In this document: positions 5,701-42,038 of the stretch, piece by piece | How positions within the stretch are numbered: position 1 is the stretch's first letter | How the letters are laid out: each line of letters begins with the position of its first letter | Position numbers and translations under genes: made by a program | Assembly: GCA_008632985.1 (NCBI GenBank) | Contig: QPGO01000020.1 | Location: forward strand, 744,001-786,038 | Direction: 5' to 3' | From: Psammoneis japonica | Lineage: Eukaryota | Length of the DNA stretch: 42,038 nt | Notes under the pieces: generated by a model | What the model saw: the letters and a program-made list of their open reading frames with translations, nothing else | Database searches by the model: none | Told to the model about the DNA's origin: nothing

Positions 5701-6784
5701 GCAAGCTTTTCTTCTTGCTTGGTCCCGGCAACAACAATTGTGCCAAGAAATGACCAAAGACAGCAGGACCAGAACCCAAGTGCAAGCTCAGCTTCTCTCT
5801 AAATGACTGAATGGCAGCAGCAGAAGCGCCTCCACAAGCAGCCAGAAAATGCCAACGCAAGTTGGCAGTGATTTCTTTCTTGCTTGACTGACTCGGCATG
5901 GTCTTTGTCAAGAGAGCTGAGCAGTGGACACAGCTGGGAATGTCATCATTGATGGCACACAGCTTGACAAAACCATGGAACAAATGTTTTGCATGCTTGA
6001 CTTTTGATGAGACCTTGCTGCGGCAGAAAGGGCTGACTCCCCATGTGCACCCTGAAGCTGTTGAGCAGACCTGTTGTCCTTGACGATCGTGTTGACTGGT
6101 GCTCATGCACTGTCATTTTGACACTCAGCAGTTGCAAATTTTTGTGTCAATGGAGCCGTGCAATGACTCTTTGGAGCAAGATCAGTGAGATCATCAATCA
6201 TGCAGATTTTCTCCCTAAATTGGAACAGCACATTTGAGCATGCCATGCAAGCAAACCACTTTTGTTCAGAGCTTTCACAAAGTGACATCTCTCAATGGAT
6301 CTTGATGCAAAAGTGTGCCCCAAGCGTGCGTCTGCATGAGCTCCATGAGGAAAATTGGAGCACATTTTGCATTTTGCAAATGCCCGCACCATGCATGACA
6401 CGACTCCCACTTCTGGGAAGGACAAACACAGTTCTTGAAGAATCACATCTTTGGAACAGCACAAGCATTCTTTGAGGTGAGATCACAACTCTGGTCTCCA
6501 CAACCAAGAACAGCCAAACCCAAAAGACTGCCATTTCAGTCAAATGTCATTCAGAGTTGCATGATGGCTTGGCCTGTCCATGCAGCATCCGAAGAACACT
6601 TGTTGGGAATGACATGCTTCAGTGACAAAACTCAGCGCCGAGGCTCTGGAAGTCATGCCACAGCAATGTCCGAACACCATTGAGAGACTGAAAATGTGTT
6701 GGCTCAACTTTGGTCCACGCGCATGTTTTCTGGATAAAAAAAGGCAACCCTCCATGCAAGTGCCTTGTTGCCGACTTTACATGA

Positions 6785-7216
6785 ATTGTGCTCTCCATCA
6801 ATTGGGCTGGAATGCATTGTTTGATGGCTTGCTTCATCCCGTCATGGCACATGCCTCAACCACAGGTGGAGTGGACTTTGTCTTTGATTTCCTTGAGAAT
6901 CAACGGTGCCAAGGCAGAGCTGCAGCTTCGAACAAAACAAAAGTTGGTGGCACCTCCCCACGGACAATCTTGGCTTTTCCTCAAAGGCGGCACCTGACAA
7001 ATTGCACTCTCCATCAATTGGGCTGGAATGCATTGTTTGATGGCTTGCTTCATCCCGTCATGGCACATGCCTCAACCACAGGGAGAGTGGACTTTGTCTT
7101 TGATTTCTTTGAGAATCAACAGTGCCAAGGCAGAGCTGCAGCTTTGAACAAAACAAAAGTTGGCAGCACCTTCCAATGGACAATCTTGGCTTTTCCTCAA
7201 GAGCGGCACCTGACAA
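6785..7216. repeat. Direct tandem duplication, 2 x 216 bp
   Basis: CTCTCCATCAATTGGGCTGG at 6791 and 7007; both units end CACCTGACAA (7000, 7216); few substitutions. Confidence 0.95.
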
Positions 7217-8466
7217 ATGGTGGGTGCGCATGTGGTCCAAGTGGCCTTTTCCACATGGACGCATGTGACAGTGCTGGAACTTTGTTGTGCTTGACTTGAT
7301 TTGTGGCAGAAGAACAACCAATCCACCCTGTGTCCCATGTTGACAGCAAGGCAGAAATGAGATCATGAACATGACAGAGTGGCACATGACGCTTTGGAGT
7401 TCGGATGGCACCAAGCCATGTGTCCGAGAAATGTTGTTCATGCTGGCAATCAAATTGGCATGTGACATTGGGACTCCCTTCCAATGCAAGCACACACCGT
7501 GGGATTGTTGGGAACGTTGTTTGGTTGTGGGTCACAACCTGAAGCATTGCTGGTGTGGACAGGCCGCTCAAGTTGGGTTTGAAGCAGTGCCAAACACATG
7601 CAGAAAAGGCACAATGTGCAAAGGTCACTTGGCATCAAAGGTCAGTTTTTGTTTCTTGTCCACCATGATGGAGTTGCTTTCCTCTGCACAATCCACTTGG
7701 GTGGGCTCCAACTTGTGCTTGACCACATCACTCTGGGCTCTGGCTCTGACTGGCTCCAATCTGCAGATTGGACAGCAATTCCCAATGTGGCTGCCACCAC
7801 CTCAGCAGCAGGAATGCCCTTTGAGGGAACCCAGAGCAGCTTGGATTTGTTGTCCTCCATGCACAACTTGTGCTTGGACTCGGTGCAGTTTTGGCTCAGT
7901 GGGGGCAAAACACACTGGGTTCATGGCATGGCGAGAAAGGCCAAAACAAATGGCAGGCAGTTTGGTGTGGCAATGGAACAAATGTCCCACTTTTGTGTGC
8001 CACACTTTTTCAACCAGACTTGTTGCAATGGACTCAATCATGTCGTGAAGCTGCTGACAGGAGGAAATTTTGATTGCGGACTGGCTGTTCTTGTGCGGAA
8101 TGCACACCAACATTCAATGAGAACCACAGGGGGAGTTGTTGCAATGTGTTCATGCCGGTGAGACATTGACAAGCAGGGACATCAGGGCCAGCTTCTGCCA
8201 TGGTGTTGTTTCATGCATTTTTAAGTTGGCAAGCACAAACTCAATTAAAGCAGACTGGTGTCAAGTGAAGTCATGAAAGGATCCACAGACCTGTCGTTTT
8301 GGCGATCATTGGAGCATTCAATGACGTTGTTGCCATCATTCACCCATTGCGCGATTGGGTTGAAGATCTTGAACAAGATGCCCAAGTTGAAGATTCTGTT
8401 TTCAACGCACATTTTGTGCAAAAATTCCCTTGGAAAAGGAGTGTCTCTTGTGAGTGGTTGTGCGAA

Positions 8467-8638
8467 TGAGAAAGTCATGTTGCGCTGAAAGCAAGAAGCA
8501 AGACGGGGAGACGGGAGATGGAGATGGGAGACACTGGCAAGAGCAAGGAGCAGCAGCACACAAAGAGCACTTGCAGCACACTGCTGCTGCCTGCTTTTGT
8601 GCTTTCATCTTTCATGCCTGTCACCAAGTGGCCCAACA
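8467..8638. repeat. Possible LTR-like segment (TG...CA ends), related to 9856-10084
   Basis: Starts TGAGAAA, ends CCAACA; shares CAAGACGGGGAGA.GGGAGA, GCAGCAC(AC)AAAGAGCA and CTG.TGCTGC with the second segment. No convincing PBS or TSD found. Confidence 0.35.
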
Positions 8639-8729
8639 TGCTCTCACGGCGGGAAGTTGCAAATGCACCCGGCCGGTCGGTGTGCAGACATTCTTTCTCA
8701 ATGACCAGCCTCTAAATCCGCCATCATCA

Positions 8730-9192
8730 TCCTGAATTCATGAATGGCCCAAATCCACCACCATCTTGAAAAGTTCATGACTGGCCTGAACTCAGTTGGT
8801 GCCAAGACTTCAAATGATCCGCTGAAACTGGCCTGAATCCACCACCATGCCAAAATTCACGACTGGCCCAAATTCACGACATTGGCTTAAATCTGCCACC
8901 ATCCTGAACAACTCACAACCAGCCTCCATGACTGGCATGAACTTGGCCAATGGCCTGAATTCGTGGCTGGCTTCAACCCGCCACCAGCGCCCTTCTGAAC
9001 AATTCACGACTGGCCTGAATTCATGACTGGCCTGACTCCACCACCTGTCACATGGCAACAGGAACCCAGTCTAAGTTCACGACTGTGCATGTGTCATCCT
9101 GCCCACTGCACACAAAAAGGTCACAACCAGAGCCTGAATTCACGACTGCCCCAACTCCACCACCAGAGGGCCCCAAAAAGTTCACGGCTGGT
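8730..9192. repeat. Array of a degenerate ~17-bp motif (GGCCTGAATTCACGACT) interspersed with CCACCACC
   Basis: AATTCACGACTGGCC / AATTCATGACTGGCC / AGTTCACGACTG variants recur about 10 times with irregular spacing. Confidence 0.8.
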
Positions 9193-9210
9193 TTGAGTCA
9201 TGTGCTGAGT

Positions 9211-9660
9211 GTTGCCAAATTTCTCAATCATTGTCATTTTTGTGCATGTCAGCAGGATGCGTTGGCATGTTGTTTGTGTCGCTCATCGATTGACACTGCA
9301 CTGCCGACAAAGAAATTGAAAAGGAACTTTTTTCCGTGGTGCGTTGAGTGTTGTTGAGCTTCTCAGAAAAAGCTTTCGATCAATGCAGCAAAGCATGCTT
9401 TGCTCTGACTCACACTTCTAACTCTGCTTTTGCCTGTTTTCAATCGCACTTCCAATCCACTCGTGTTGGCTCATGTGCCATGGCAGGCATCGAGGTCCTG
9501 GCTCTCACTTTTCGGGGAGCATTTCCGCAAAATTTCTCGATTTGCTTCTCAACCTGCCTCTGGCCTCTGGCCAAGTGCGTTTCTTCGACACTTGGAATGA
9601 CTGCATGACAAGTCTCACTCCAAAAAACAAACAGAACTCATGGTTGTTTCGGACTCAAGC
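9211..9660. repeat. Diverged, TA-erased paralogue of 12157-12200 plus 13200-13560 (old local duplication with a large indel)
   Basis: Shared blocks: GTTGC.AAATTTCTCAATCA.TGTCATTTTTGTGCA; CGTTGAGTGTTGTTGA; TGCTTTGCTCTGAC; TCGAGGTCC; CGCAAAATTT; TCGACACTTGGAATGACTGCAT.ACAAGTC. Confidence 0.85.
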
Positions 9661-9855
9661 TGGACTGTTGTGGAAATCCTGCAACAAACACGGCTGCTGG
9701 CTGTCCAGACCGTGGATGCTTTTTCCGAGGTGCCGTTCGTTTTGACATTCCGGATTTTCTGCACCATTTGAAGAATTTCACCTTGGCAAATCCAAAGTGT
9801 GGAGAAGTTAAATTCCGTCGTAATTGGCAAAATCTACAGTCCAAAGCTGAATTTA

Positions 9856-10084
9856 TGAGAAATGTGGGCCCACAAGTCTTGGTGGTTGCTGTGATTTCAA
9901 GACGGGGAGATGGGAGACTCAAACACAAGCAAGCCGCAGCACAAAGAGCATCGCACTGATGCTGCAAGATGGCACAGCTTGGTGACCAACAGTGCCAGTG
10001 ATGATGTCAAATGCAATGCATTGATGCTCGGTGCTTGCTGTGGATCCCTGCTGGCGACAGAGATTCTTCTTGCCGGCCACAACA
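9856..10084. repeat. Possible solo-LTR-like segment related to 8467-8638
   Basis: TGAGAAA...CACAACA ends and the shared purine-rich GACGGGGAGATGGGAGAC core; flanks do not form a TSD. Confidence 0.3.
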
Positions 10085-10284
10085 TCACTTTGGTGTGCTG
10101 AGAGGCCACAGCGGCGCTCTTCAGTGAGGGAGGTTCGGTTGTTCACATTCCCACACGCTCGGGTGAGGAGATTGTCAGTCAGACGGTTCAGCGAGTCGGC
10201 CAATGCCTCATTGGAGCTGGTCGAGTCTTTGCTCAATCCCATCCTGCTTCAAGTCTTTCTGCTTCTCCTGGTGCTTTCACAGTT

Positions 10285-10800
10285 GTGCTGTCCGACACAG
10301 TCAATGCCTTTGTCCTGCCCAACAATCATGTGTTTGTCATGACGGGCCTTTTCCAACACGTTCGAGACGAAGATGAGTTGGCCGCTTTGTTGGGACATGA
10401 ATTGGCTCATGGAATTGCATGCCATGCTGGTGAAAAAATGAGCGGTTCCATTGTTGTCAATGTCACTGCTCGGTTGTTGTTCTCAGTGGATCCTTCAGGG
10501 GCACTGTCGTCCACACTTCTCTCGGCAGCTCAGTTGCTGCAGGAGCTTTCTAATTCTAGACAAGCTGAAACCGAGGCTGATCAGATTGGTGTGTTCTTGA
10601 CTGCTCAGGCTTGCTGTGATCCACGTGCTGCCAAACGCGTTTTTGCGTGAGTTGTTTTCTTTGCGCACACTGGCATGCCATCTTGTTTGTCATTCCTCTG
10701 CTTAACTTCTGTTCTTCCATTGTCGGCATGTCCAGAGCAATGAAAGAGGGAGCAAAGGGAGCACAGCCTCCAGAATTCATTTCGACTCACCCTGGATGCC
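10285..10800 (+). pseudogene. Peptidase family M48 (Oma1/HtpX-like) gene fragment with one intron (10647-10735), TA-erased
   Basis: 'VNAFVLPNNHVFVMTGL', zinc motif 'LLGHELAH', 'SRQAETEADQIG', 'ACCDPRAA' (family ACYDP); a GTGAGT...CTTAAC...CCAG intron restores the frame to 'AMKEGAKGAQPPEFISTHPG'. No intact N- or C-terminus evident. Confidence 0.85.
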
Positions 10801-13800
10801 AGGGGCTTTGGGGGTCTTTGAGAGTGATGCCGGTCACCGTTGTCGTCAGGTTCGTGAAGACATGCGAGCAGCTCATTTGATTGTGGCGCAGAATCAAGGC
10901 ACCACGACTTAACACAGGGGAGAGGAGCTTGAATGCAATGGCACCAGGAGTTGAGAGTGGTGCTCTAGAGAGTTCGCAGGCCAAAAGAATGAAAGGGACA
11001 TCGCCAATGACAACGCTGGCGCAGTGGGAGCACATCGCAGGGGACGCAACAGTGCAGGGGCGGCGCTTGCAAGTGGGCTTGTGGTGTGCTGTGCAAGTGA
11101 TGGCTCTGCCAGTGTGATGAAGGAATCGAAACTCGAAACCAGCGATGTCATGCCCAATGACGAAGTGCTGCATCCTTTGTCATTTGCCATCTTTTGCTGC
11201 TCTTCTGTTCAAGTCGCTGCTCTTCTGTTCAAGTTGTTGAACATTGTGGCAAGCAGGCAATCAGAGCCGAAACAGCCCAGCATGCATCGGCGACGGGGCA
11301 CACCGTGACGAACAACCCGACGTGGACTCTGGGCAAGCAAGTGCACGATGACATCGCAAGCACTGCGACCGTCATCGCAGTCCATTTGACATGCATGCGG
11401 AATGAATTGCGTGCAAATGAAGATTGCCACAGTGTGCTTTTAGAGTCTTTCTGCTTCCATTGCAAAGGTTCAAAGCGTGTTTCAAACAGTTGAAACACGC
11501 CAATGTCAAAAGTTGACATGGAAATCGGTTGCGCAGGGTGACGTTGCCTCAAGAGCTCCATCAAAAGATGGCGCTCAAGCTTTTGCGTGTCTTCAGAGAG
11601 AAAAAATGTCACTCTAAAAAAAGCAAAAGGGGGGGCGCACTGCAGAGACAACAAGAAAACTTGCCAGTCAACCGCGTTCTAAATCAACACTCCCCACGAG
11701 TGAAGACTCACCGCATCATGCCACTGATGCGACAGAACCCCAAACCTGTGTTCTGTCAACAGCATGATCTGCTCGGCGAGCTCTTGCTGCTTCACAGACG
11801 AACGCTGCTGTCTGTTTCAACAGCCGTGACCTGACGGGTCAAGCGAACAGGCAACTTCCTGTGCTTGAAGACACGAGAGTGACATGGACTCAAGGCCGGA
11901 GAGATGCACTCGATTTGCCCCGACCTCTGGACTTAACTGGCAACACCTGCGCCACCTGGAGACAACACGTCAACAAGCATGATGAGTTGTGGAACACCAA
12001 ACAAGAGCTGGCTCTCTGTTGTCCGCAAGAAGGGCGAGCCATCCTGGGCGATCGCGGCAATCGTTGCTTGGCGAACAACAACACATCGTGCGAGACAAGG
12101 AGTTGTGATTGAAAAGCGTGAAAGAATTTCCGAGAGATTTTGAGTGAGACATGACCGTTGCTAAATTTCTCAATCAGTGTCATTTTTGTGCACATCTGTA
12201 GAATTACTACCATGATTTCGTATGTAGAACATTCGTGAAACTTGGTCTCGCGCACGTGTGCGCGGTCATTAGACTGTGTAGGCGTGTGTGCGTGTGTGAG
12301 GTGTAAGTAGAATATACGTAGAATTACTACTGATGAGTTGACAGGCGGTGGATTTTCCGCCGGTACACAATCTACGCGGTCTACATGGAACATAAATTTA
12401 TGTCGGTCTCTGAGGATTTTACATATCATTAACATTTCTTTGGTCTTTTAAATATACATACCCAAATTCAAAAAAGTGAGGAACACCCCGAAACACATTT
12501 TTGAATCTGTATAAAAAATTTTTTTATTTAACGGTCCGAACAGGGTCGCCCCGAAGCGCTTCTCAAAATATCCTCATATTGTATATAGTAAAACATCTAC
12601 TATCACCAAAACAGAGTCACTATCGGATAAATAGATCCCGTGTTCTTCGCGCGCAAACAACACGATAACGCACAACAACACCATGGCGAGAAACGCGAAC
12701 GCCGTCCCCTCATCTACAAGTTGGGAATACGAGATACTATTGAAGTGGTTGGACAATATGTATGCGCTGTATTCATGGGTCAAGTTGGGTTTCTTCTCGT
12801 TGCTTGTTGTTGCGTCATTTTACTACGTTTTGACCCACGCCGTGTTCTTTGCTTTGTTGCTTCTGCTCGCGCGCCACCAACAGCACTTCCTGCAGGGTAT
12901 GGCTAGTTGCTCATCACATCGAACCCAAACGTGCGCGACCAACTAGCCCTACCCCGGCTAACTCATACTTTCAAAATTATTACCAAATCCTACGTACACT
13001 TTACGGTAACCATAGAAAACGCAAACATTTGTCGCCAAGGTGACTGTTCGTTGTCGAGGTCCGAGCTAAGAATAATTAGCAGGTGGCGCAACACATCTTC
13101 TTGCCACATACAATAACACGGCATTCAGCACGACGATGACAAAGCTCCGGATTGAGATCATCACAGATCACAGTAGTCGACTTCCCAACGAAGAAAGTGA
13201 AAAAGAAACCTTTTCCGTAGTACTGTACGTTGAGTGTTGTTGATTGTTGAGCTTAATTCACAGAAGAAGCATTTGATTGCAGCAAAGTATGCGAATGCTT
13301 TGCTCTGACGCATGCTTCTACTTTTACTTTTACTTGGTTTTTATCATACCTCCAATCCATCCACTCGTATCAGTTTGTGTACCATCCCGGATATCGAGGT
13401 CCCGGTATTCTCTTTTCGGGGATAATTTTCGCAAAATTTATCGATTTGCTTTCTCAACCTACCTCTGGCCACGTTTGAACGTGCATTTCGTCGACACTTG
13501 GAATGACTGCATAACAAGTCCTATTCCAAAACATCAAAAGGAACTCGCGGGTTTTTCGGATCCAAGTCATCTGGTTGATTTTACTCATGACACTCCGTTG
13601 CTAACGTGGGCGTCGTAGACGTTGCTCTCGATTCACAGCAGATTCTTTCAACGATTGAAGGACGCTGGATGCAGTGATATCGAGACAAATAGCCATAAGA
13701 GTGGGTTGTTGATGTTTGTGTGAGTCTCGGTGGTGAAGCAGGTGATTTTGTTGCAGTTGAAAATTACGCAAAGACAGCACAAGCACTGCAAAGTTCGTCA

Positions 13801-19039: not shown

Positions 19040-22000
19040 GTCCCATCAGCAGTGTTGTTGCCCCTTGAGCATGTGGAATGCCAACAACAAAAAGCAAAAA
19101 GAGAAAGCAAAAAGTGGGAACAAGTCATTGTTGTTGACTTTTAATCATGCAGAAACAGAATGTCCAAGCAGAGCAGTGCATGCCGCTGCTCTCTGCAAGC
19201 ACAGTTTCTTCTTCATGATTGTTTTGCATTGGTGTTTCACAGCCTCCTCTCTTTTGGCTTGTTTTTTGTGTGCTTTCACCGCCACCACCCTTTTCTGTGC
19301 AGTGATGTGTGCAAGGCAAAAGCAAATGCCTCCAGGCTCCAGGGGTCTTCAAGGATCAAGAGTGGATTTGTTGCATTTGCCAGGCATGCCATTTTGATCC
19401 TTTCCTTTTTTCCTTTTTTCCCTTTCCAACCTCAAGTCTCTCATTTTTGAAACAGCACATTGGCTGCCAAGCATCCTTTTCTGCCAGGGGGGGGGGGGGG
19501 GGGGGCGCTCCAAAAGTCGTGCACTGATGAGTGCAAGAAATGTGAAACATGCCATTTCTTTGGCAGAAAGAGAGCAACTGACCATCATGCCCTGGCTGCA
19601 GCAGGAGGCTGTGATGTGACAGAGAGAGCCTTCACTCTTCAATGTCTGGGAAAGGGGTGGGCCAGAAACTGGCGTGCAGTGGCTTGGGTTGTTGGTGTGC
19701 AGGGGGCAACCAGAGTCAAGGCCAGCCACATGCTGACAGGGGTGGCTGAGCTCACTTTGAAGCAAGCACCAAAGAAAGACTGGAGGGTTTTTGCTCATGC
19801 CCCCTTTTTGATGATGCAAGACCAATCATTGGTTTGTCATGGGGTGCTTTGCTGAGATTGTGGGTGAGAAGCCAATTGTTTGTTTTGGCTTTTTTGTGGC
19901 ATGAAGTCATGCAGCATGCTCAGTGAGTGTGAGCTTTGGTGCTGTGGCACATGGATTTGCCAGCACCTTCTTTGGCAAAAAGCATCATTTTGGGCTGGTG
20001 CAGCTGTGCACCTTGAGGGCTTTTTTTTTCAAATCAAAAACATTTGTGCCAGTGTGCAGTGGAGCAGCTTGCCATCCATCCACCAAGAGGAGCAGCGGCC
20101 AGACTCCTCTCTTGCAACAACAACCCCAAGCTCAGTTGAGCTTCATTGCAAAGCTGCCTTGTCTGTTGCTTTTGCATGAGGGTGGCAGTGCTTTGTTGTC
20201 AGCTGCCATCTCCAGCAGGCAGCAGGTTTGGCAAGTGACAGTGCTGACCAACATCATCGTTGACAGGGTGTGAAGAAGTCCAGTTGTGTGACATTTGATG
20301 CCAGAGATTTTTTACACGCACCACATTGGTTGGCACATTTCAAACAATGCTGGCACATCAGGACTGGAGTGCATCACTTGGACACAATGATGATCCAGGG
20401 CAGGCACTCATTTGAAATGCCACCATGTTTGCTGCACTTTGTGTTGGAGTTGAGACATGCAGTGGATGGCCCATCACATGACTCAATGATGTGGGCTGCT
20501 TTCACCCTCAACAGTGCTCTCTGTGCAGCAGACCTTGCGAGTCTTTGATGTGGTCACAAAAGGTTGGAAAAGGTGCTTGTTTGTTGCAGCTTGCTTTTGC
20601 TTGACCAAAGCTGTCATTTCCACCAATGTCCTCCCCAGGCTCAATCATGAATGAGGGGTGCTCACCAATCTGTCAGCTGGCGGTGCTTTCAACTTTGCTC
20701 TGCTGGCCAACACAAATGATTTGGTTGTCAATTGAGCTCCCCAATTTAAACACTGAGATGTTTTGTCACAAACTGGTGTTGACAAATGCAAAATTGTGCG
20801 CAGCAACTCTTGCAAAACTGCAGCAAATGATGCTGTGCAGATCAGCTGCACACTCAGCTGGTGCTTCACACAACAGCTCCCACTGAAAAAAAAACTTGTG
20901 AGAGACACCATGTGGGCATTGTTCCAGTGGGCTTCATTGGCAGAGTCATCCTTGAAGCAAAGCCAAATCATCACCTTGCCACTCAAGCCCCTTTTCCTGG
21001 TCCAAAAGATGCCCATGTCTTGCAGGTCTCATTGTCCACCAAGGTGTCAGCACAATGCTTGGTGCCAACATCCACCTTGTGCACGGCATGGCCGCTTTTG
21101 ACACATGGCATGCTTGAAAAAGTTCATGTCATCACTGGCTGCTTCTGCATCCGATGTGTTCCAAAGGCTCATGGTGCATGCTGTGGAGTCAAAACTTGGG
21201 TGTTTCTTGTTGTGAGCCATGCAGAACACGTGCGGGTTCTCTTGTGTGCTTGACATGGCTGTGTGTGGCTTGAAAGGATGTGCCCCAATGCAAGCAGATC
21301 CATCCAGGTGCGCTTGAAAGGATTTGACCCCACTCGACAACCAAAGCACCTTTCATCTGTCAGCATGTGGGAAATGGATCATCCAGCAACTGGCTGTGCC
21401 AAGCAACATGGAGCGGCTCAACTTGATGTGAGTTGGGAGAATCTTCTGGGCTGTGCGCTGACAGACCTGACTGAGCTCACTTTGAAACAAAAGCAATGGA
21501 AAAGGTGTGTGCAATTTTGACATGCAAACACCAACAAGTGCGGCAACCATGGAGGGCTCTTCAATGCACTTGAAACAAGATCAAATTGTTGGCACACCCC
21601 GGGATGTCACCTGGATTGTGAGTGATGGATCAGCTGCCTGTTTTTGATTTTTTTGGTGTGAAGCCATGCAAACAGGTGAGCCAAGTGGACATGAATTTTG
21701 GCGTTGCAGTTCATGGAGACTTGTCGACACCTTTGAGAAACCCTTGCATTTTTGACAAAATCAGTCTCTTGTCTCAAGGCCTTTTTTTTGGATGTTTGAT
21801 GTGCACAGGAGCACAGCTGATCAACAACCAAGAGCAGGAGAGGAGCTGAAAACATGTGGCATGTGCAACTCTTGCAATGAGCCCCCCAGTTCACTGTTTT
21901 GAAAGAAAGCAAGCAATTTCCCTTGACGCAATTTCACCACATGGCTGTGTCTGTCACTGCTGCTGTGCAGGACCACACCCTGTTGCAAACTCCTGTCCAG

Positions 22001-23330
22001 ACAAAGAAAGAGAGTGTGCCAATTCATTCATTCATTCATTCAAGAGAGAGAGAGAGAGAGAGAGAAAGAAAGAAAGAAAGAGAGAGAGACAGTGTGGTGA
22101 CTTGACATCAAATTAAATCAGTCAACTCAAATCGCCTGTCCCTTGCCCCTCTGATTGTTCCAACACAAAAGCTCACCACACATCAACAACAGCAGCCAGC
22201 CACTGATGAAGCCACTGCAAAAATCTCATTTTCTTGACTTCGGCCAATGTTGTTGTGCCTGCTGTTTGCTGAAACAGCTGGACATGTTGTGCCCAATCAA
22301 GCAGCTTCACCTCAGCTGCCAACGCCATTTGTTTGTCACATTTGATGGAAATTTTGATCATTTGTTCAAGAGAGAGAGAGAGAGAGAGAGCTCTTGGACA
22401 AAGTTTGTGTCACAGTCGACAGAAAATTGGTTGTGCTGATTTTGTCAGAGGAGAGCCCTGTCATCTCACACATCTGCTGTCTTGGTGGCGCCAAAAATGC
22501 TGTGACGGCAGGACCCATGGGGACTGAATTGACAAAGGCCACCAGGAGCTTTGGATGCACAAGTGTGACTTGGGAAACCATGTCTCAAAACTTGGGCTGT
22601 TTCTGCATGAAAAGCACCAATTTGAGCAAGAGCGCAGCAATGTCGTCGATGCGCTCCAGCTCCAGGTGGGACCTCGCACTGCTGAACTGTGACATGGTTG
22701 TTTTTTCATCATCCGTCACATGTTTCGCAAGTGCATTTCTGCATGTTCCATCACAAAAATTTGTTCCACACTGCCTGTTTTGTGAAGCCAAAGGCTTTCT
22801 GTTGTCTGCATTTGTGACAACAAAAATGCGCTGGGCATGTTCTTTGGTGTCTGAAAAACACACCCGGGCATGCTGCAAAGAATGTGCTTCAAGTGTGGAG
22901 GAGGAGATGCATTCGCAAAATTGCCTCTTTTTCTGTTGGCGATCATTCACATGTTCATTGCTCAACAATTTTGCAGCTGAGCTCACACGTGGAATTCCAC
23001 GGGCCCAATGTCACACGGAGTCCCACCTGGGGCTGGAACGCATCGTTGTGGCAACAATCTCACCATTCCTCGTAAGACTCAAAAAATGCCAAGCCAAACT
23101 TGCACAAAAAAATCCCGCATGTGCATCGCACTCAAAGTTGACTGTGGGGCTCGATGCAAGGATTTCAACCCTGCTCAAGTTCGTTCATCCAAGTGAACAT
23201 GTCAGGAGTGTCTCTGTCCTCAACACCCTCCACAGAGAGACCAAGGTTGACATTCTTGCCCTCGCACACCACATGCGAACAATGCCTGATCATGTGACGT
23301 TTGATGCCTGAGCATTCTTGCATGTGCCTC
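19040..23330. other. TpA-depleted relic/repeat island 2 (element identity not recognised)
   Basis: Only a handful of TA in 4.3 kb (TTAA at about 19141, 20746, 22113; TTAC at about 20312); Tyr-free spurious ORFs; G19 run at 19487-19505. Confidence 0.88.
22022..22390. repeat. Microsatellites: (TTCA)n-(GA)n-(GAAA)n at 22022-22090 and (GA)n at 22368-22390
   Basis: Directly visible simple repeats; both GA runs follow TTCAA. Confidence 0.9.
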
Positions 23331-27000: not shown

Positions 27001-28901
27001 AGCCTCCGGTAGCTCCGACTGCCAAACCAGAACCTCCTGCAACTGCAACTCCAACACAGTACCCAAAGCCCCCGTCACCTTCGCCCAAGCCCCCATCGCC
27101 CTCTCCGAAGCCACCGGCAACTCACGCTCCAACAAAGTACCCAATGCCACCGTCGCCCAAGCCACCGTCACCTTCGCCGAAACCTCAACCACCTTCACCA
27201 CCTCCTCCGGCAACTCTTTCTCCAACACAATCCCCAATGCCACCTTCACCTTCGCCGAAGCCCCCGTCACCTTCGCCGAAACCTCCACCGCCTCCGGCAA
27301 CTCTTTCTCCAACAACTTACCCAATGCCTCCATCACCTTCGCCAAAGCCCCCGTCACCTTTGCCGAAACCTCCGTCGCCTTCTCCGCCGCCTCCTGCAAC
27401 TGCGGCACCTTCTGTGGAGCCACCACCTCCGGCAACTGAGGCTCCAACGAAAGCACCGAAGCCGTCGCCAAAGCCACCGTCACCATCACCGAAGCCGCCG
27501 CCACCGTCGCCAAAGCCGCCATCACCGGGTCCTTGTCCGCCGAAGCCTCCGTCGCCATCTCCGAAGCCGCCATCACCGTCTCCGAAGCCGCCGTCACCGT
27601 CTCCGAAGCCGCCATCGCCCTCTCCGAAGCCGCCGTCGACTTCGCCAAAGCCACCATCACCGTCTCCAAAGCCCCCGTCGCCTTCGCCGAAGCCACCTGC
27701 TACACAATCTCCAACCCTTAAGCCATCGCCAGAGCCATCAAAAGCCCCCACGCCTGCGCCAACATCTGCACCGACGTCTGTTCCTACTTCTTCTCCAACG
27801 CCTTCGCCAACACCTGATCCGACGCCTAAGCCCCCGTCACCGGCGCCTAAGCCTCCGTCCCCTTCGCCAAAGCCTCCAGCGCCGTCGCCAAAGCCACCAG
27901 CAACACCTGCTCCGACACCTAATCCCACTCCTGCTCCGACGCCTGAGCCCACTCCTGCTCCAACGCCTGAGCCCACTCCTGCTCCGACTCCTGAGCCCAC
28001 TCCTGCTCCGACGCCTGAGCCCACTCCTGCTCCGACGCCTGAGCCAACACCAGCTCCCACTCCTGCTCCGACACCCACGCCTACAAAGCCGCCTGCACCT
28101 TCGCCGAAGCCACCGAGCAAGGGAAGCAATGGAGGATCATCCTCAAAGAGCAAGGGAGGTAAGAAAGGTTCATCCTCCTCGAAGAGTAAGGGCGGATCCA
28201 AGGGCGGAAAGAAGGGTTCGTCTTCCTCCAAGAGCAAGGGCGGAAAGAAGGGTGGATCGTCGAAGAGCAAGGGCGGCAAGGGTGGCTCGTCCTCCAAGAG
28301 CAAGGGCGGGTCAGCGCCGTCACCAAAGCCGCCGGCATCACCAGCTCCGACACCCGAGCCCACTCCATCTCCGACGCCTGAGCCAACACCTGAGCCCACT
28401 CCTGCTCCGACGCATGAGCCAACACCAGCTCCCACTCCTGCTCCGACACCCAAGCCTACAAAGCCGCCTGCACCTTCGCCGAAGCCACCGAGCAAGGGGA
28501 GCAAGGGAGGATCATCCTCAAAGAGCAAGGGAGGAAAGAATGGTTCATCCTCCTCGAAGAGCAAGGGCGGAAAGAAGGGTTCGTCCTCCTCCAAGAACAA
28601 GGGCGGAAAGAAGGGATCGTCCTCCTCCAAGGGTAAGGGAGCAAAGAAGGGATCCTCGGGCTCTTCTTCCAAGAGCAAGGGAGTAAAGAAGGGATCCTAC
28701 GGCTCCTCCTCCAAGGACAAGGAAGGAAAGATGGGATTCAAACCTACACCGTCTTCGGGATCTGCTACTTATTCATCTGCCAAGAGCAAGGGTGGACATT
28801 CAAAATCTAGCTTCTCTTCAAGCATCGCGAAGCCTCCGTCTTCGGCATCCAGCAAGGGTGGCAAAGGTGGAAAAATGAGAAGTCGGGTCTTTCATTCCTA
28901 A
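24028..28901 (+). CDS. Secreted Pro/Thr/Ser-rich, silaffin-like protein (~1599 aa); exons 24028-24342 and 24417-28901
   Basis: Signal peptide [18 protein letters not shown]; RxL-type 'DRELL'; phase-0 intron GTAAGT...CCTAAC...TTCAG (24343-24416); Cys-rich domain of about 240 aa; PTP/PSPKP/PTPEP repeats; C-terminal [12 protein letters not shown] repeats ending KMRSRVFHS. Confidence 0.9.
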
Positions 28902-29389
28902 ATGATTTGAACAAGAGAATCCAAGTAGCGAATGCTGTTTGAAAAAAAATCTCGTTTCAGTCTTTCAATGAAATCTAACGAGTCAGAGTTTTTTCTTGAG
29001 CTCAACTCGTACTGACCGTGGTAGATTCGATGCGCGTACGTTGGATTTTGTTGCCCACGGGCATAATTACGAAAGGAGGAAACTGTCACGTTCCTTGTCA
29101 CCTTTCCACAAGATGAATTCGATCTTCGGGGTTTCTATAATACGTGATTTTTAAAGGAATAGCTAAGTGTAATGAAAAAAATCATGAATAATACCTCCAG
29201 TACTTCGAATATGACTTGCGTTCAACGGACGGTCCTCTATCACACGACTCGCAATGGAAATTTAAAAATTCAAATAATGTACACATTGATAAAAGAGGAT
29301 TGACAGTACCCTGAAATTGGGAACGTTAGTTCTGAATACAAACATAAATTTATTTTCCACGACACAAACCACATTTTGCCATCTGAAAA

Positions 29390-30686
29390 AATGGAGGATC
29401 ATCCTCAAAGAGCAAGGGAGGTAAGAAAGGTTCATCCTCCTCGAAGAGTGAGGGCGGATCCAAGGGCAGAAAGAAGGGTTCGTCTTCCTCCAAGAGCAAG
29501 GGCGGAAAGAAGGGTGGATCGTCGAAGAGCAAGGGCGGCAAGGGTGGCTCGTCCTCCAAGAGCAAGGGCGGGTTAGCGCCGTCACCAAAGCCGCCGGCAT
29601 CACCAGCTCCGACACCCGAGCCCACTCCATCTCCGACGCCTGAGCCAACACCTGAGCCCACTCCTGCTCCGACGCATGAGCCAACACCAGCTCTCACTCC
29701 TGCTCCAACACCCAAGCTTGCAAAGCCACCTGCACCTTCGCCTGAGCCACCAAGCAAGGGGAGCAAGGGAGGATCATCCTCAAAGTGCAAGGGAGGAAAG
29801 AAAGGTTCATCCTCCTCGAAGAGCAAGGGCGGAAAGAAGGGTTCGTCCTCCTCCAAAAGCAAAGGTGGAAAGAAGGGTTCGTCCTCCTCCAAGAACAAGG
29901 GCAGAAAAAAGGGATCGTCCTCCTCCAAGGGCAAGGGAGCAAAGAAGGGATCCTCGGGCTCTTCTTCCAAGAGCAAGGGAGCAAAGAAGGGACCCTGCGG
30001 CTCCTCCTCCAAGGACAAGGAAGGAAAGATGGGACTCAAACCTGCACTGTCTTTGGGGTCTGCCACTTGTTCATCTGCCAAGAGCAAGGGTGGACATTCA
30101 AAATCTGGCTTCTCTTCAAGCATCATGAAGCCTCCGTCTTCGGCATCCAGCAAGGGTGGCAAAGGTGGAAAAATGAGAAGTCGGGTCTTTCGTTCCCAAA
30201 TGATTTGAACAAGAGAATCCAAGTGGCGAATGCTGTTTGAAAAAAAATCTCGTTTCAGTCTTTCAATGAAATCCAACGAGTCAGAGTTTTTTCTTGAGCT
30301 CAACTCGCACTGACCATGGTGGACTCGATGCGCGTGCGTTGGATTTTGTTGCCCACGGGCACAATTGCGAAAGGAGGAAACTGTCACGTTCCTTGTCACC
30401 TTTCCACAAGATGAATTCGATCTTCGGGGTTTCTATAACACGTGATTTTTAAAGGAATGGCTAAGTGTAATGAAAAAAATCATGAACAATGCCTCCAGCA
30501 CTTCGAATGTGACTTGCGTTCAACGGACGGTCCTCTGTCACACGACTCGCAATGGAAATTTAAAAATTCAAATAATATACATATTGATAAAAGAGGATTG
30601 ACAGTACCCTGAAATTGGGAACGTTAGTTCTGAATACAAACATAAATTTATTTTCCACGACACAAACCACATTTTGCCATCTGAAA
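29390..30686 (+). pseudogene. Tandem partial duplicate of 28129-29389 (3' coding end, downstream region and next promoter start), hypermutated
   Basis: Colinear high-identity copy starting ATGGAGGATCATCCTC and ending CCATCTGAAAA; one extra 36-bp Lys/Ser/Gly unit; stop TAA changed to CAA; no 5' exon. Confidence 0.93.
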
Positions 30687-30908
30687 ATCGGCAACAAGAC
30701 CCGCTCACATTTTTTGCCAGCCAAAGAACTCACTTCGTTTCACGCCTACGTGAACCTGATGGGGCGGCGCAAATCAGCGTTCCATATCTCGGGATTGGTA
30801 AAGATCACAAACACTCAAACTATCCACGCAAAAGCTCTGTGACCCAATAGCACAACGTGATAAGATCCTCTTCGTCGAGCCTTGTGATAGTAACTTGTGA
30901 AAGAAACG

Positions 30909-33674
30909 ATGCGGATTGCAACTGTGCTAATCCTAATTTATGTAGCACCGCAGGCGGCAGCATATGAACACTTCTACAGTAAAATCCTTCGTCGTGCGTT
31001 TGAGGTTCTAAGAAGCCCAAAAGGATTTCATCTCCGTAAGGGAGATAGAGAGCTCCTGATTGACACCACAACCTGTGCGCCGACGAAATCCCCCGGCCTT
31101 GTCTTCAGGTGGCCAACTCCCTCTCCAACTACGCCTGAACCGGTTGAGACTCTGTCGCCTACAGCTGGTCCTACTCCTTCACCCACGCCTGTGCCAACAC
31201 CTTCCCCGACACTCAGCCCGACTACATCGCCAACACCACCGCCGAGTCCGGAGCCCACAGTCCAGACGCCATCACCGTCTACATCCCCAACGCCACCTCC
31301 GACACCCGCACCGTCGGCGCCAGATCCAGTTATTACCATATCCCCTACATCCAATCCGACGCCGCCTCCTACACCCAGTCCGACGCCGCCTCCTACTCCC
31401 AGTCCGACGCCGCCTCCGACATCCGCACCGACTCCGCCTCCGACACCCGCGCCGTCGGCGCCAGATCCAGTTATTACCGTAGTCCCAACAGTGTCACCAA
31501 CCGATCAAGTGCCGCCTCCGACGCCCACACCTACTCCACCTCCGACTCCTGCGCCGTCGGCACCAGATCAGGTTATTACAAGCAGTCCGACGAGGCAACC
31601 GTCGCCGCCTCCGACGCCAACACCTACTCCACCTGCGACTCCTGCGCCGTCGGCACCAGATCAGGTTATTACAAGCAGTCCGACGAGGCAACCGTCGCCG
31701 CCCCCGACGCCCACACCTACACCACCTCCGACTCCTGCGCCGTCGGCACCAGATCAGGTCATTACCAGCAGTCCGACGAGGCAACCGTCGCCGCCTCCGA
31801 CGCCAACACCTACCCCACCTCCGACTCCTGCGCCGTCGGCACCAGAACAGGTTATTACAATCAGTCCGACGAGGCAGCCGTCACTGCCCCCCACACCCGC
31901 CCCGTCGGCACCAGATAAAGTTATTACCATTGTACCGACTGTTGTTCCTACTCTGGAGCCAACCGTGTCGCCAACGGCATCTCCAACTACGCCTCCTGAA
32001 CCGATTACTCCTCCGTCAAAACCCCCAACGAAAGCGCCGACGTTTCCGCCAACAAAATATCCCAAGCCTTCCCCAAAGCCTCCGTCACCTTCTCCAAAGC
32101 CTCCGGTAGCTCCCACTGCAAAACCAGAACCTCCTGCAACTGCGGCTCCAACAAAGTACCCAAAGCCCCCGTCACCTTCGCCCAAGCCCCCGTCGCCCTC
32201 TCCGAAGCCACCGGCAACTCATGCTCCAACAAAGTACCCAATGCCACCGTCTCCTTCGCCGAAACCTCCATCACCTTCACCACCTCCTCCGGCAACTCTT
32301 TCTCCAACAAAGTACCCAAGGCCACCATCTCCTTCGCCTAAGCCCCCGTCGCCCTCGCCGAAACCTCCATCGCCTTTGCCACCGCCTCCGGAAACTCTGG
32401 CACCTTCTGTGGAGCCACCACCCCCGGCCACTGACGCTCCAACGAAAGCACCAAGACCGCCATCACCGTCGCCAAAGCCCCCGTCCCCTTCGCCAAAGCC
32501 GCCATCACCGGGTCCTTGTCCGCCCAAGCCCCCATCACCTTCACCAAAACCACCGTCACCGTCTCCGAAGCCGCCGTCGCCTTCGCCGAAGCCACCGTCA
32601 CCGTCTCCAAAGCCCCCGTCGCCTTCGCCGAAGCCACCTGCTACACAAGCTCCAACAATTAAGCCATCACCAGAGCCATCAAAAGCCCCCACGCCTGCGC
32701 CAACATCTGCCCCGACGTCTGTTCCTACTTCTTCTCCAACGCCTTCGCCAACACCTGATTCGACGCCTAAGCCCCCGTCACCGTCTCCAAAGCCCCCGTC
32801 ACCAGCTCCGAAGCCTCCGTCACCTTCGCCGAAGCCACCTGCGCCGTCGCCGAAGCCACCAGCAACACCAGCTCCGACACCAGTCCCAACGCCTGCACCT
32901 TCACCTAAACCTCCAAGCAAGGGCGGATCGTCGAAGAGCAAGGGCGGCAAGGGCGGCTCGTCTTCCAAGAGCAAGGGCGGATCAGCTCCGTCACCAAAGC
33001 CACCGGCATCACCAGCTCCGACACCTGAGCCCACTCCTTCTCCGACACCTGAGCCGACGCCTGAACCATCACCTGAGCCGACTCCTGCTCCGACACCTAA
33101 GCCTACAAAGCCACCTGCACCTTCGCCGAAGCCACCAGGCAAGGGAAGTAAGGGAGGATCATCCTCAAAGAGCAAGGGAGGAAAGAAAAGTTCATCCTCC
33201 TTGAAGAGCAAGGGCAGATCAAAGGGCGGAAAGAAGGGTTCGTCCTCCTCGAAGAGTAAAGGCGGAAAGAAGGGTTCGTCCTCCTCCAAGAGCAAGGGCG
33301 GAAAGAAGGGATCGTCCTCCTCCAGGAGCAAGGGCGGAAAGAAGGAATCGTCCTCCTCCAAGGGTAAGGCAGGAAAGAAGGGATCCTCGAGCTCCTCTTC
33401 GAAAAGCAAGGGAGGAAAGAAGGGATCCTCCGGCTCTTCTTCGAAAAGTAAGGGAGGAAAGAAGGGATCCTCCGGTTCCTCCTCCAAGGGCAAGGGCGGA
33501 AAGAATGGATTAAAACCAAAACCGTCTTCAGGATCTGCTGCTTATTCCTCCGCCAAGAGCAAGGGAGGAAATGTAAAATCCGGCTTCTCTTCAAGCATCG
33601 CAAAGCCTACGTCTTCTACATCCAGCAAGGGTGGTAAAGGTGGTAAAATGCGAAGTCGTGTCTTTCATTCCTAA
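30909..33674 (+). CDS. Paralogue of the silaffin-like protein (~921 aa), intronless and lacking the Cys-rich domain
   Basis: ATG 30909 [18 protein letters not shown]; same N-terminus, repeat classes and KMRSRVFHS end; upstream 30510-30908 is similar to 23505-24027. Confidence 0.9.
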
Positions 33675-34823
33675 TTTATTTGCAAAATAGAATCCAAGAA
33701 GGGAATGCTGCCTGAAGAAAGAATTCATTCTCGTTCAGTCTTTCGGTGAATTCATAACGAAGTCCTGTGCACTGTGGTAGATCCGATGCTCGTACAATGA
33801 GTTGGATTTTGTTTTCCACAGGCATAACTGCGAAAGGAGGAAACTGTCACGTTCCTTGTCACCTTTCCACATGATGAATTCTATCATTAGGTTTTCTATA
33901 TACATAGTACGTGTTTTCTACCGGAATCGCTAAATGTCATCAGTAAGAATTATTTTCAAACACGGCCTTAGCTTTGCTGCTTTTGATGAAGCCGTTTGCT
34001 GGGCGCTTTGAGTGAGCGGCATTTCTAGTTTTCGTATAGTATCCTTGACGGCAAAGCTCCATCAGGTGAAGCGTCTACGTCGCTGGAGAGAGCACCGTAA
34101 TAAGAGACCACCAATTATAGAAAGACTACTACAGACATTTTTTTCGGATCTCGGACAGCAAAGACAGCAACCATTTTCAATCGAGACTCGGCTTCGATTG
34201 TGTCCAACACAACACAGCAAGATTTCTCGGATGGCAAATAGAACATCTTCAAGCGTCTCCTTAATTGTACTAGCGACGAGTGGCTGTGAGTTACCAAGAT
34301 ACTTTGCATGCGGATCCTCCTCTTTAGTTTGGTTTTCCTCGACAGATGCAGTATTCAAATGACCAATCGGATGTCGATTGTCATTGGTGACAGACATTTT
34401 GTGCGGTCGATTCCATATGATGAATCAGTCTCGTGAACTTCTGGAAAGACATTCTCGGCTTCAATACGAAGCTTGGTTTGTATACTCATAATTCCTTTCC
34501 TCCTCTAGAGTAGAGCTAAATCAATGTCAAACTCAATATGCGATATTCACACATCAATCGTGTGCATTACGATCGTGCAAACATATTCGATGAAACTCTG
34601 CGGCGCTCGCCTTGTAGTGCAAGCCACCAATACCTCATGGTCCAGATAGTGTCTTTTCGTTTTTGATTCTCCATTCGATTTGATTCTTGGGATCTTCAAG
34701 TTTGTATCCCACCCGAACGACTCTCCCGCTTGGAGACGGTGGCGTATAGTTGTCAAGGTTATGCTTTTGAGAAATGGTTTGCACATATTTCCACATTCAA
34801 TCAAGAATTTCCAGTCGGCGTAG

Positions 34824-40200: not shown

Positions 40201-40429
40201 GCAAAAAGAGAGCGAGGAGATGCGGGAACGCGACAGAGATTTTGCGAAGTCCCTTGCCTTCCTGCCGTCCAAAAAAGTGAGGCGGGTCATGGGCGGGTCA
40301 TTGCATCGGTCATTCTGGATTCGTCAGATTTACCGCCAAAACGAGCGAGAAACGAAAAAATGAGTGAGCGACGACGAAGGCGATGCAGACTGACGCACAC
40401 CACGAATTTGACGACCAAACCCATCCTTT

Positions 40430-42038
40430 AGCTGCAACCCACACAGCAAAGCTTGTCATTGCAGTGTCGCTGTCAGCCATGCCACCAACAGTGGCAAACG
40501 CCTCAAGCACTCCTTCAGAATCCGCGCTCCTTCAGAGCCCGCCCCGTGTCTCCAAAATGCACCGGATTTTTTGAGACGCTCAGGTTTTGAAGAACGGAAA
40601 AATTCAATTCAGAAGCACAAAAAACATGCCAGACCCTGCGCCACCAGGCGCAGAACAGTTCAGGGTGTGCACAAATTTTGTGCCACAGCGGCGCACATGA
40701 TTTTTGTGCGAGACTCCACATCGCCAAGCGGCGCAGACCCAGCGCAAAAGCAATGAATTTTTGAAGTTTTGTGGTGCACAAAGTCAGCACATTGTGACGC
40801 AATGGATTTGACATCAACAAGGCTTTGTGCAACACTTGCGACAACAAAGACAACAGAGAGCCACTTGCAAAATCTTGCCCCCACTTTGCACGTTGCAGCT
40901 GATGTGGCGTTGTTCATTCGTCTCACTCGTTTTCATCGTGGAACCTCCTGATGACACAGGGTGTCTTTCAGGCATTTGCATTGGTCTGATTGCCCCCCCC
41001 CCTCTTTGGGCAAGAATGGGGTGTGGTTTGCTTGAAAAGGCACCAGACCAGCCACAAGAAGCTTGCGGCAGAGAGCTGGCAAGCAAAGCACTGGGCTGTG
41101 CCACAAGGCACTGGCTGATGGGGCAGCATTGGGCAAGCACAGCCACAAGCATTTTCCTGTGGTTGCTTTGCACCACATGTGACAAAGCCAGAAACGTGGA
41201 CTGAGAAACACAGACAGCCAGGTTTTGCTCAGCTGGCCACCCAAAATTCAAGCAGGGGTGCAGCGGGAATGAAGAGGGCTGCAGGTCAATTTGAGGTCCC
41301 AGTGGGAACTTGCTTTGCATGTTTGTCAACAGCCTGCTGCAGAAGCTGTTGCTGCACTGGAAATCCAAAGGTGGCAGCGGGTGATGGGGTGGATCTTGCA
41401 AATTCTCTCAAGACTTTGTGACACACAAGGCCAAAATTTGGGCACAGCATCCACAGATGCTTTGGGAGAGATGCTGTGAATTTGTCAAGGCAGGTGCTTC
41501 TGACAGCATGGGTGGGAAAGGCCAGTGCTTGTTGCTGAGAATCTTTGTGAAGATTTTTTGAAGAGGATGACATGCCACATTTTCTCACTTGGAGACTTTG
41601 GAGAATTGTTTGAGCACAATCGGGCCAAACCTGCCAAAGTGTGCATTGAATTTTGGAGAACAAAGAAGACACAGATCCACAGCAGTGGCCAAGCTGGTGG
41701 GGCAAGGCTTGGAAAACAAGCTGCCCAAGAAGCCATGATGGGCTGGCAGCAAAACACTCCTCACAAAAGATGAAGCTGTCAAGCTGCCACAGGCTGACAC
41801 AACTCCACAGTTGCGCACTGTGGGAGCTTTGCTGTCAAGCACAAAACCACAGCACCTCAAGTCACAGACAAGCTGCTTTGCAGGCAGAAGCCCAGCCAAT
41901 GGCCGCAAGTTGACAGCCCCACAACATCTTCTCTTTTTCTCCTTTTTCCTTCTTTTCCTCTCTCTTTCTTCTCCTTTTCAAATCATTCTTCTGGGCCACC
42001 TCCAGTGGTCACCTCTTTCATTCTTCCCACATGCCAAA
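40430..42038. other. TpA-depleted relic/repeat island 3 (runs off the window end)
   Basis: No TA found by eye after CTTTAG at about 40429; begins with repeated TTTTGTGC/GCACAAA/GCGGCGCA motifs at 40570-40900. Confidence 0.88.

Follow-up and report, generated by a model that had tools for sequence, protein, structure and literature searches.

The locus and its duplicated gene tail

The window analysed here, 42,038 nucleotides of contig QPGO01000020.1 from Psammoneis japonica (GenBank assembly GCA_008632985.1), contains two neighbouring paralogous genes, the first of which (gene 1; open reading frame (ORF) 24393-28901, 1502 codons) is followed by a partial duplicate of its own 3' end. The subject of this report is the hypermutation of that duplicate at the dinucleotide TpA. 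We refer to the source unit as copy A, to the duplicate as copy B and to the corresponding part of gene 2 (ORF 30897-33674) as copy C; these and the other features of the window are listed in Table 1. A and B are 96% identical; their local alignment spans 1262 columns, of which 49 are substituted, and B has a single insertion, a repeat unit of 36 bp. The reading frame of B is still open; the stop codon has changed from TAA to CAA (28899 in A), as a first-pass annotation made from the letters alone had noted, and missense changes are numerous, two of them turning Tyr into Cys. B is a pseudogene fragment.

Table 1. Features of the window, in window coordinates.
Feature	Coordinates	Strand	Remarks
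Copy A	28128..29389	+	Source unit, essentially unmutated; last 774 bp of the gene 1 ORF followed by 488 bp of 3' flank
Copy B	29390..30687	+	Head-to-tail partial duplicate of A; without start codon and without promoter region of its own
Hypermutated patch in B	29450..30537		First to last TpA-loss site; 24 TpA to TpG/CpA plus 10 CpG to TpG/CpA
Copy C	32919..33940	+	3' end and flank of the paralogous gene 2; serves as outgroup
Nearly TA-free domain 1	1..12160		33 TpA; CpG-poor core 1-8000; right border at 12162-12199
Nearly TA-free domain 2	19143..23072		3 TpA in 3.9 kb; CpG observed/expected 0.10-0.34; between the ABC-transporter gene and gene 1
Nearly TA-free domain 3	40430..42038		0 TpA; continues past the window end
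Copia-type polyprotein remnant	2922..5711	-	Integrase, reverse transcriptase, RNase H; residues 469-1457 of relative P0098
M48 peptidase fragment (cellular type)	10102..10891	+	HExxH retained; inside TA-free domain 1
Segment X	9304..9659	+	Diverged copy of Y (13185-13566, normal domain), 80% identical

TpA is lost from copy B

The 39 TpA of A have become TpG at 14 positions and CpA at 10 in B, with 15 unchanged and none turned into CpG. Within 28129-29265, 24 of 31 TpA were lost and a single one was gained, at 29574; this is exactly what the first-pass annotation had counted by hand, and all of its quoted examples are present. Among the 49 substitutions from A to B, A:T to G:C changes account for 30 (24 at TpA), transitions at CpG for 10 and transversions for 3. 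The A:T to G:C changes affect 24 of the 78 A/T bases that lie in TpA (31%), 5 of the 122 that lie in ApT but not in TpA (4.1%), and 1 of the 443 remaining A/T bases (0.23%), an approximately 130-fold difference between the first class and the last. The earlier claim that A and T outside TpA are almost untouched thus held when the substitutions between A and B were tabulated by context (24/78 within TpA against 6/565 for the rest; Fisher p = 1e-18), and ApT also differs from other A/T (p = 0.002). On the plus strand the changes comprise 14 A>G and 10 T>C, interleaved along B. The proposal that the change is TpA-specific and acts on both strands of a redundant, non-functional copy is borne out.

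Of the two copies it is B that was mutated; candidate hits in A number 3 at the most, against 24 in its duplicate. The mutated patch is approximately of unit length and forms an island, 6.3 kb and 9.7 kb from the nearest TA-free domains on either side. In the last 150 bp of B, 3' of the patch, all 9 TpA are kept, several of them in good contexts, while in the tail of A, just upstream of B, positions 29279 and 29284 belong to TG and CA where B has TA, and outgroup C is unaligned there. Ordinary paralogue pairs of the window are free of such a bias: of the 52 differences within the control pair 23800-24308 and 30684-31189 (upstream regions), 30 are transversions and 7 relate to TpA, the latter split 3 to 4, and of the 98 between A and C, 50 are transversions and 12 relate to TpA, at a split of 4 to 8.

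Elsewhere in otherwise normal DNA, the region 35285-35812 holds a unit of 134-165 bp, present four to five times, that resembles a repeated mini-exon with its intron (pyrimidine tract, CAG, short conserved stretch, GTAAGT); the copies differ partly by TA versus CA or TG, in both directions.

There is a second component to the spectrum, which the first-pass annotation had overlooked together with the nearly TA-free domains described below. Of the 62 CpG of A, 10 are TpG or CpA in B, and at most one change goes in the reverse direction. A preference of these CpG changes for TCG, as would be expected of an enzyme like the ADAT2 of amphioxus, was considered and set aside: by eye only 3 of the 10 are in TCG, and ordinary decay of 5-methylcytosine is therefore the simpler reading.

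The base 3' of the adenine matters

For the analysis of context the two adenines of every TpA, which lie on opposite strands, were scored separately. Mutated adenines of B are followed on their 3' side by C in 10 cases, G in 7, T in 6 and A in 1; for the unmutated adenines the following base is C in 15 cases, A in 21, G in 8 and T in 10. Adenines in TAA are refractory, since only 1 of 22 was mutated as against 23 of 56 for all others (p = 0.001). The few TpA that survive in the saturated domains of the window are in line with this rule from B: 28 of these 36 lie in YTAR (CTAA 12, TTAA 10, TTAG 3, CTAG 3; Y, pyrimidine; R, purine), compared with 126 of 808 in the normal DNA of the window (p = 2e-15).

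Copy B is the derived copy

Copy C, whose alignment to A is good between about 28250 and 29170, was used to polarise the changes. Of all 24 TpA-loss sites, 15 have the base of A in C and 5 that of B; a different base stands there at 3, and 1 falls in a gap. At the 14 sites with a local identity of at least 0.7, C equals A at 9 (6 with an intact TA), equals B at 2 (28809 and 29069) and has a third base at 3. At the CpG changes it sides with A by 7 to 3. Since C mostly matches A at both classes of site, B is the derived copy, and the earlier view that TA is the ancestral state is upheld by 9 of 14 well-aligned sites and by the protein homology of the copia and M48 sequences described below.

Taken alone, the comparison of A and B is symmetric, and it might equally have been read in the opposite direction, with C>T changes at CpA having created TpA in A and C while B stayed unmutated; repeat-induced point mutation (RIP) has been described as converting CpA to TpA in the accessible text of PMC2621366. 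This reading is refuted as far as the data go. TA is retained in the outgroup, the conserved Tyr codons of the copia and M48 families are Cys or His codons in the window, domains with a TpA observed/expected ratio of 0.00-0.09 are impossible to produce by creating TpA, and the missense changes and the lost stop codon sit in B rather than in A.

Sequencing reads match copy B over parts of its length

Read support was sought in three runs from one sample (2019), probably the assembly's own, in which 71%, 46% and about 0% of sampled words of 21500-31000 were found; read-derived contigs were mapped to 29300-30900 at 98% likeness, and the platform of the runs is unrecorded. The contigs are identical to B over 29664-29782 (8 sites specific to B, including one TpA loss; k-mer depth 24), over 30409-30567 (7 TpA-loss sites; depth 40) and over 30538-30687, and the junction between B and the upstream region of gene 2 is spanned by contigs (30658-30803). 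At this level of likeness no contig covers 29894-30325, where most of the 15 TpA-loss sites without coverage lie, or 29300-29353, and one of the three runs yielded no contig in the region; such gaps are evidence neither for nor against the assembly. The raw-read confirmation recommended by the first-pass annotation was accordingly obtained for part of the copy, with 8 of the 24 TpA-loss sites matching B and one further site, 29450, being covered by a contig of A type only.

We also observed that the B-specific contigs are shallower (depth 24 and 40) than the unique flanking ones (55-62). B may be heterozygous, or its alleles may have been mutated differently.

These data bear on the possibility of a sequencing or base-calling artefact, in which modified bases of silent chromatin would be misread as TG or CA. 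We consider this very improbable. The runs come from one sample, probably that of the assembly itself, their platform is unrecorded and three B sites are represented by A-type sequence only, all of which leaves some room for such an error; against it, contigs built from the reads at k-mer depths of 24-62 equal B over 29664-29782 and 30409-30687, and the mutated copies also hold indels, transversions and stops, like old pseudogenes. Furthermore, TA never appears as CG, a result that miscalls made independently on each strand would sometimes yield. Polymerase-based platforms, moreover, read N6-methyladenine, 5-methylcytosine and 5-hydroxymethyluracil as the unmodified base.

The same signature saturates three domains of the window

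A 1-kb scan of the window placed TpA-poor domains at 1-12000, 19001-23000 and 40000-42038. The three domains as finally delimited (17,699 bp) hold 36 TpA where 1141 are expected, which means that 97% are gone, and 332 CpG where 1072 are expected. In the TA-poor domains the observed/expected ratio of TpA is 0.00-0.09 (0.11 at 40001-41000), as against mostly 0.3-0.8 and up to 1.10 elsewhere; that of CpG is 0.09-0.78 (0.88 at 40001-41000), and TpG and CpA stand at 1.4-2.0. The borders, at about 12.2, 19.1, 23.1-23.3 and 40.4 kb, are abrupt, extending over about 40-250 bp; at 12.2 kb, for example, the count rises from 0-2 to 17 TpA per 200 bp.

TpA loss extends further than CpG loss. Between 8 and 12 kb the TpA ratio is 0.06-0.09 and the CpG ratio 0.44-0.78, and at 40.2-40.8 kb there are 0-1 TpA per 200 bp with normal CpG. 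The TpA process is also the faster of the two, since a larger share of TpA than of CpG has been lost in B (62% versus 16%).

It could be argued that no targeting is involved at all, and that TpA is hypermutable throughout the genome, with selection preserving it in genes while B and the transposons drift. The TpA ratio is indeed just 0.3-0.8 in most normal 1-kb windows (0.95-1.10 in two), and the intron-like repeats at 35285-35812 differ partly by TA, CA and TG. However, the 488-bp flank of A is non-coding and retains its TpA while the homologous part of B has lost most of them, the non-coding paralogue pairs of the normal domain show 30 transversions among 52 differences and only 7 TpA-related changes, and the borders of the domains are sharp within about 40-250 bp. 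We therefore give this explanation hardly any weight.

Long spurious ORFs fill the TA-free DNA because TAA and TAG are gone and TGA is the sole stop codon left. Of the 265 stop-to-stop ORFs of at least 70 amino acids in the window, 140 fall in the TA-free domains (each taken with a 100-bp margin), which make up 42% of the length. When these 140 were compared with Pfam, RVT_2, Peptidase_M48 and a sub-threshold AMP-binding match were recovered and nothing else. One ORF of 305 codons (22394-23311) has no Pfam match.

In repeat copies within TA-free DNA (1-470 and 6784-7218), adjacent double changes are mostly TG opposite CA (6 of 8 and 2 of 4). This is what one would expect had each copy, after duplication, resolved a palindromic TA or CG on its own. 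The use of TG/CA-discordant dinucleotides (2 and 6 cases) as proof of an ancestral TA was rejected, as an ancestral CpG yields the same pattern.

A transposon, a cellular-type gene and other DNA have been hit

The copia-type remnant in domain 1 gives an independent view of the ancestral state. All 31 Tyr of P0098 that align with the polyprotein of the window are replaced, 15 by Cys, 15 by His and 1 by Phe, so that no Tyr remains and Cys or His stand at 30 of 31 positions. In the reverse transcriptase, 12 of 12 columns with a Tyr conserved in 58-62 relatives are changed, to Cys (TGY) in 7, His (CAY) in 4 and Trp in 1. Eighty environmental relatives, loci from a metagenome scan with the alignment as query, have Tyr in 804 of the 960 cells of these 12 columns and Cys or His in 31, also stated as 31 of 946, which differs strongly from the window (p = 3e-15). 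From conserved Tyr codons that are now Cys or His it follows that TA was ancestral in this domain, and the equal Cys to His ratio of 15:15 means that both strands were hit equally. Arg positions of the remnant are often Cys, His, Gln, Trp or stop, the signature of CpG decay. When the metagenome scan was queried with the mutated reverse transcriptase itself, no relative was confirmed.

One of the 80 relatives, L056 (a metagenome contig of 1143 bp), has a TpA observed/expected ratio of 0.24, a CpG ratio of 0.41 and TG/CA ratios of 1.7. It has Cys or His at 5 conserved Tyr columns, its first five columns being identical to the copy in the window, and 8 of its 20 surviving TpA lie in YTAR compared with 17% overall (p = 0.014). 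L056 hints that the TpA process is active in other environmental organisms.

Both well-conserved Tyr columns of the M48 fragment are changed, to His (CAC) and to Cys (TGT), and beyond 10647 its frame is disrupted, either by a break or by an intron; tblastn found no M48 copy in the normal domain. In segment X, 11 of the 19 TpA of Y are TG or CA and 1 is kept. The second copy of a 48-bp direct repeat (9211-9258 and 12157-12204, 85% identical) coincides exactly with the right border of domain 1. This repeat and the X/Y pair suggest that a segment was duplicated long ago and that its left copy was engulfed by the mutated domain; a long diverged duplication between 9.2-12.2 kb and 12.2-15.3 kb was sought, and only X/Y and the 48-bp piece align. 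The targets thus comprise a transposon, the duplicate of a host gene and neighbouring DNA of cellular type. A viral or foreign origin would suit the copia element; B derives from a host gene, and neither X nor the M48 gene is recognisably foreign.

The nature of the targets is relevant to a further explanation, namely that transcripts were hyperedited from A to I by an ADAR-like enzyme, then reverse-transcribed and inserted. One target is a retrotransposon, and a 5' U is favoured by ADAR-type enzymes according to the discussion in the accessible text of a preprint on Bigelowiella natans (Mettrop et al., bioRxiv 10.64898/2026.01.13.699255). Nevertheless, B carries A>G and T>C changes in a mixed order where editing of one RNA strand gives one type only, and B is a head-to-tail genomic duplicate that includes the 488 bp of 3' flank and has a clean junction. 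Moreover, the TA-free domains include DNA that is not of transposon origin, and none of their borders (about 12.2, 19.1, 23.1 and 40.4 kb) lies at the sole mapped transposon coding remnant. An origin in edited RNA is, in our judgement, very unlikely.

Neighbouring genes and the host

Genes 1 and 2 are tandem paralogues for long Pro/Thr-rich repeat proteins with Lys/Ser/Gly-rich C-terminal repeats, and the product of gene 1 has a DUF7467 domain at its N-terminus. Both products look like wall or silica-associated proteins; we take the Pro/Thr-rich and Lys/Ser/Gly-rich repeats of gene 1 to be of the kind present in diatom wall proteins. The nearest Atlas cluster to the ABC/UPF0014 protein of the window is eukaryotic and most commonly from Bacillariophyta, and among the listed copia relatives the sole name that carries an organism is that of the diatom Epithemia. 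The proteins of the window themselves are absent from the protein collection, where their best match is 47% identical, which argues against B. natans itself as the host.

Discussion

The hypermutation described here is a DNA-level change that acts on both strands, makes one hit per TpA, depends on the flanking base, is sharply bounded and is accompanied by CpG decay. We believe it likely that a locally targeted process changing A:T to G:C at TpA hit B after the duplication and saturated the adjoining domains, and that this is probably an adenine deamination recruited by a silent-chromatin or methylation mark.

Based on these observations, we propose the following course of events. First, the tail of gene 1 was duplicated without a start codon to give B. 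TpA in B was then rewritten to TpG or CpA on either strand but never to CpG, with TAA as a poor substrate, while a slower decay of CpG to TpG or CpA proceeded alongside, as expected if the target was also cytosine-methylated. Chemically, an enzyme probably deaminates adenine in DNA at 5'-TA, and the resulting hypoxanthine is read as G; this enzyme was probably recruited by a mark of silent chromatin or methylation and not by homology of sequence in itself. The target would be inactivated by missense, with every Tyr codon lost, and by the loss of TA-containing signals, and the decay of CpG would provide TGA stops. The process may serve a defence function.

The first-pass annotation had suggested a process aimed at repeats or silent chromatin. 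The same signature saturates transposon domains, which fits a process directed at silenced, repeated or foreign DNA, but recognition of repeats in the manner of RIP is unsupported, B alone being mutated. Targeting by homology only fits poorly because A, 96% identical to B, was spared.

Several points weigh against our interpretation. A is untouched, and targeting by homology would fit only if mutated alleles of A were purged by selection; a repeat-triggered process could still have operated, as burst-like hits on a functional A would be purged as a block. The sole contig at 29450 (a TpA loss), 29468 and 29574, within 29393-29677, has the letters of A, and of the 24 TpA-loss sites, reads support 8 and fail to support 1, the other 15 (29932-30367) being without a contig. 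C sides with B at 5 of the 24 TpA-loss sites and at 2 of the 14 well-aligned ones (28809 and 29069). An attack on thymine in TpA would leave the same pattern, the dinucleotide being palindromic, and the process as a whole is deduced from the sequence of this one window. Finally, the amphioxus ADAT2, the sole ADAT2 shown to deaminate DNA, prefers GAA and not TA for adenine, according to the accessible text of PMC10354150.

The attack on thymine deserves separate consideration. The first-pass annotation named adenine as the mutated base; in a palindromic TpA, T>C before A is indistinguishable from A>G after T, and the secondary preference for ApT (5/122) is equally symmetric. The same targeted process could therefore act on thymine, for instance by oxidation to 5-hydroxymethyluracil or 5-formyluracil by a dioxygenase of the TET/JBP type, with mispairing with G giving T>C. 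Thymine hypermodification with a preference for TpA exists in dinoflagellates and kinetoplastids. In contrast, there is no sign of a thymine-modifying enzyme in the window, and the authors of the B. natans study, the only experimental precedent for the signature, propose adenine deamination as its source in the accessible text (Mettrop et al., bioRxiv 10.64898/2026.01.13.699255). On balance we regard thymine as an unlikely, though serious, candidate for the base attacked.

The trigger cannot be foreign origin alone, because a promoterless copy of a host gene was struck. The half-mutated B next to an intact A is a natural before-and-after pair, and it provides a rule, that TAA is refractory, which candidate enzymes must reproduce. 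The process can reach completion, with 97% of TpA removed. Tracts of this kind inflate ORF predictions, having TGA stops only, and distort composition-based binning; transposon proteins are hidden from homology searches because all Tyr are lost.

Comparison with known systems

To our knowledge, all hypermutation-type genome defences known from eukaryotes before 2026 were cytosine-based (RIP and APOBEC). Fungal RIP, as in Neurospora, resembles the process described here in that dense, dinucleotide-specific transitions on both strands ruin transposons and duplicates, in its bounded tracts of skewed composition and in the link with cytosine methylation. However, RIP changes C:G to T:A at CpA and so creates TpA and stops, whereas here A:T to G:C removes TpA together with the TAA and TAG stops; and RIP mutates both copies of a duplicate, whereas here only B was mutated. 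Deamination of 5-methylcytosine matches the minor component (10 of 62 CpG in B; CpG observed/expected ratios of 0.1-0.5 in the domain cores) but is unable to remove TpA, and in the window it is slower and less far-reaching than the loss of TpA.

As for adenine deaminases, the natural target of TadA is UACG, with a preference for a 5' U. The A-to-I chemistry of enzymes of the TadA/ADAT2 and ADAR types would give A>G, and a 5' U or T preference is typical of ADAR, as far as the accessible sources describe it. On the other hand, ADAR works on RNA. The amphioxus ADAT2, cited in the B. natans preprint as a precedent for DNA editing, deaminates DNA and, in E. coli, prefers GAA for adenine and TCG for cytosine, according to the accessible text of PMC10354150, and the GAA preference mismatches the rule found here.

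A search of the literature for TpA loss in diatoms, and for any other description of such a process, found the B. natans preprint alone (Mettrop et al., bioRxiv 10.64898/2026.01.13.699255). The first-pass annotation had known of no published description, and this one supersedes it on that point. According to the accessible text, 231 of 302 nuclear point mutations in mutation-accumulation lines of B. natans lay in integrated nucleocytoplasmic large DNA virus (NCLDV) sequence and in a virophage region; nearly all were A>G or T>C, every such change was at TpA, and the rate was about 1000 times the background, with mutations in some lines only. The genome is reported to contain 124 clusters that are poor in TpA and rich in CpA and TpG, and 324 TpA-poor coding sequences enriched in reverse transcriptase and DDE domains, and the authors propose that an ADAT2-like DNA adenine deaminase may be responsible. 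The terms "CpG", "diatom", "flanking" and "trinucleotide" are absent from the main text of the preprint (bioRxiv 10.64898/2026.01.13.699255).

The likeness to our observations is close: to the extent that the accessible text describes them, both processes make almost only A:T to G:C changes, at TpA, giving TpG or CpA according to the strand, and both affect discrete regions while the rest is ordinary (in our case within one window), leaving a trace that is poor in TpA and rich in CpA and TpG. The host here is a probable diatom, and so a stramenopile, whereas B. natans is a chlorarachniophyte. Depletion in the window is near total, with 3% of the expected TpA left, in contrast to a rho of 0.45 for the NCLDV region. 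Beyond what the accessible text reports for B. natans, the window shows CpG decay, targets that include the duplicate of a host gene and a gene of cellular type, and a flanking-base rule with TAA and YTAR refractory. Our signature is read from sequence, whereas that in B. natans was read from mutations in real time. We regard the two as the same kind of process, with the lineage, the saturation, the coupling to CpG decay, the flanking-base rule and the host-gene target being new here. A second and ecologically dominant lineage, probably the diatoms, would thus carry the TpA signature beyond one rhizarian alga.

More tentatively, it is possible that diatoms and chlorarachniophytes share a dedicated defence in which TpA is erased from silenced duplicates, transposons, inserted viruses and fragments of host genes by an adenine deaminase that acts on DNA, finds its targets through silent chromatin or methylation and not through their foreign origin, and follows a rule of its own (TA followed by C, T or G), and that such a defence is common among marine protists and a major influence on the composition of their genomes. 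If true, it would be the functional mirror image of fungal RIP.

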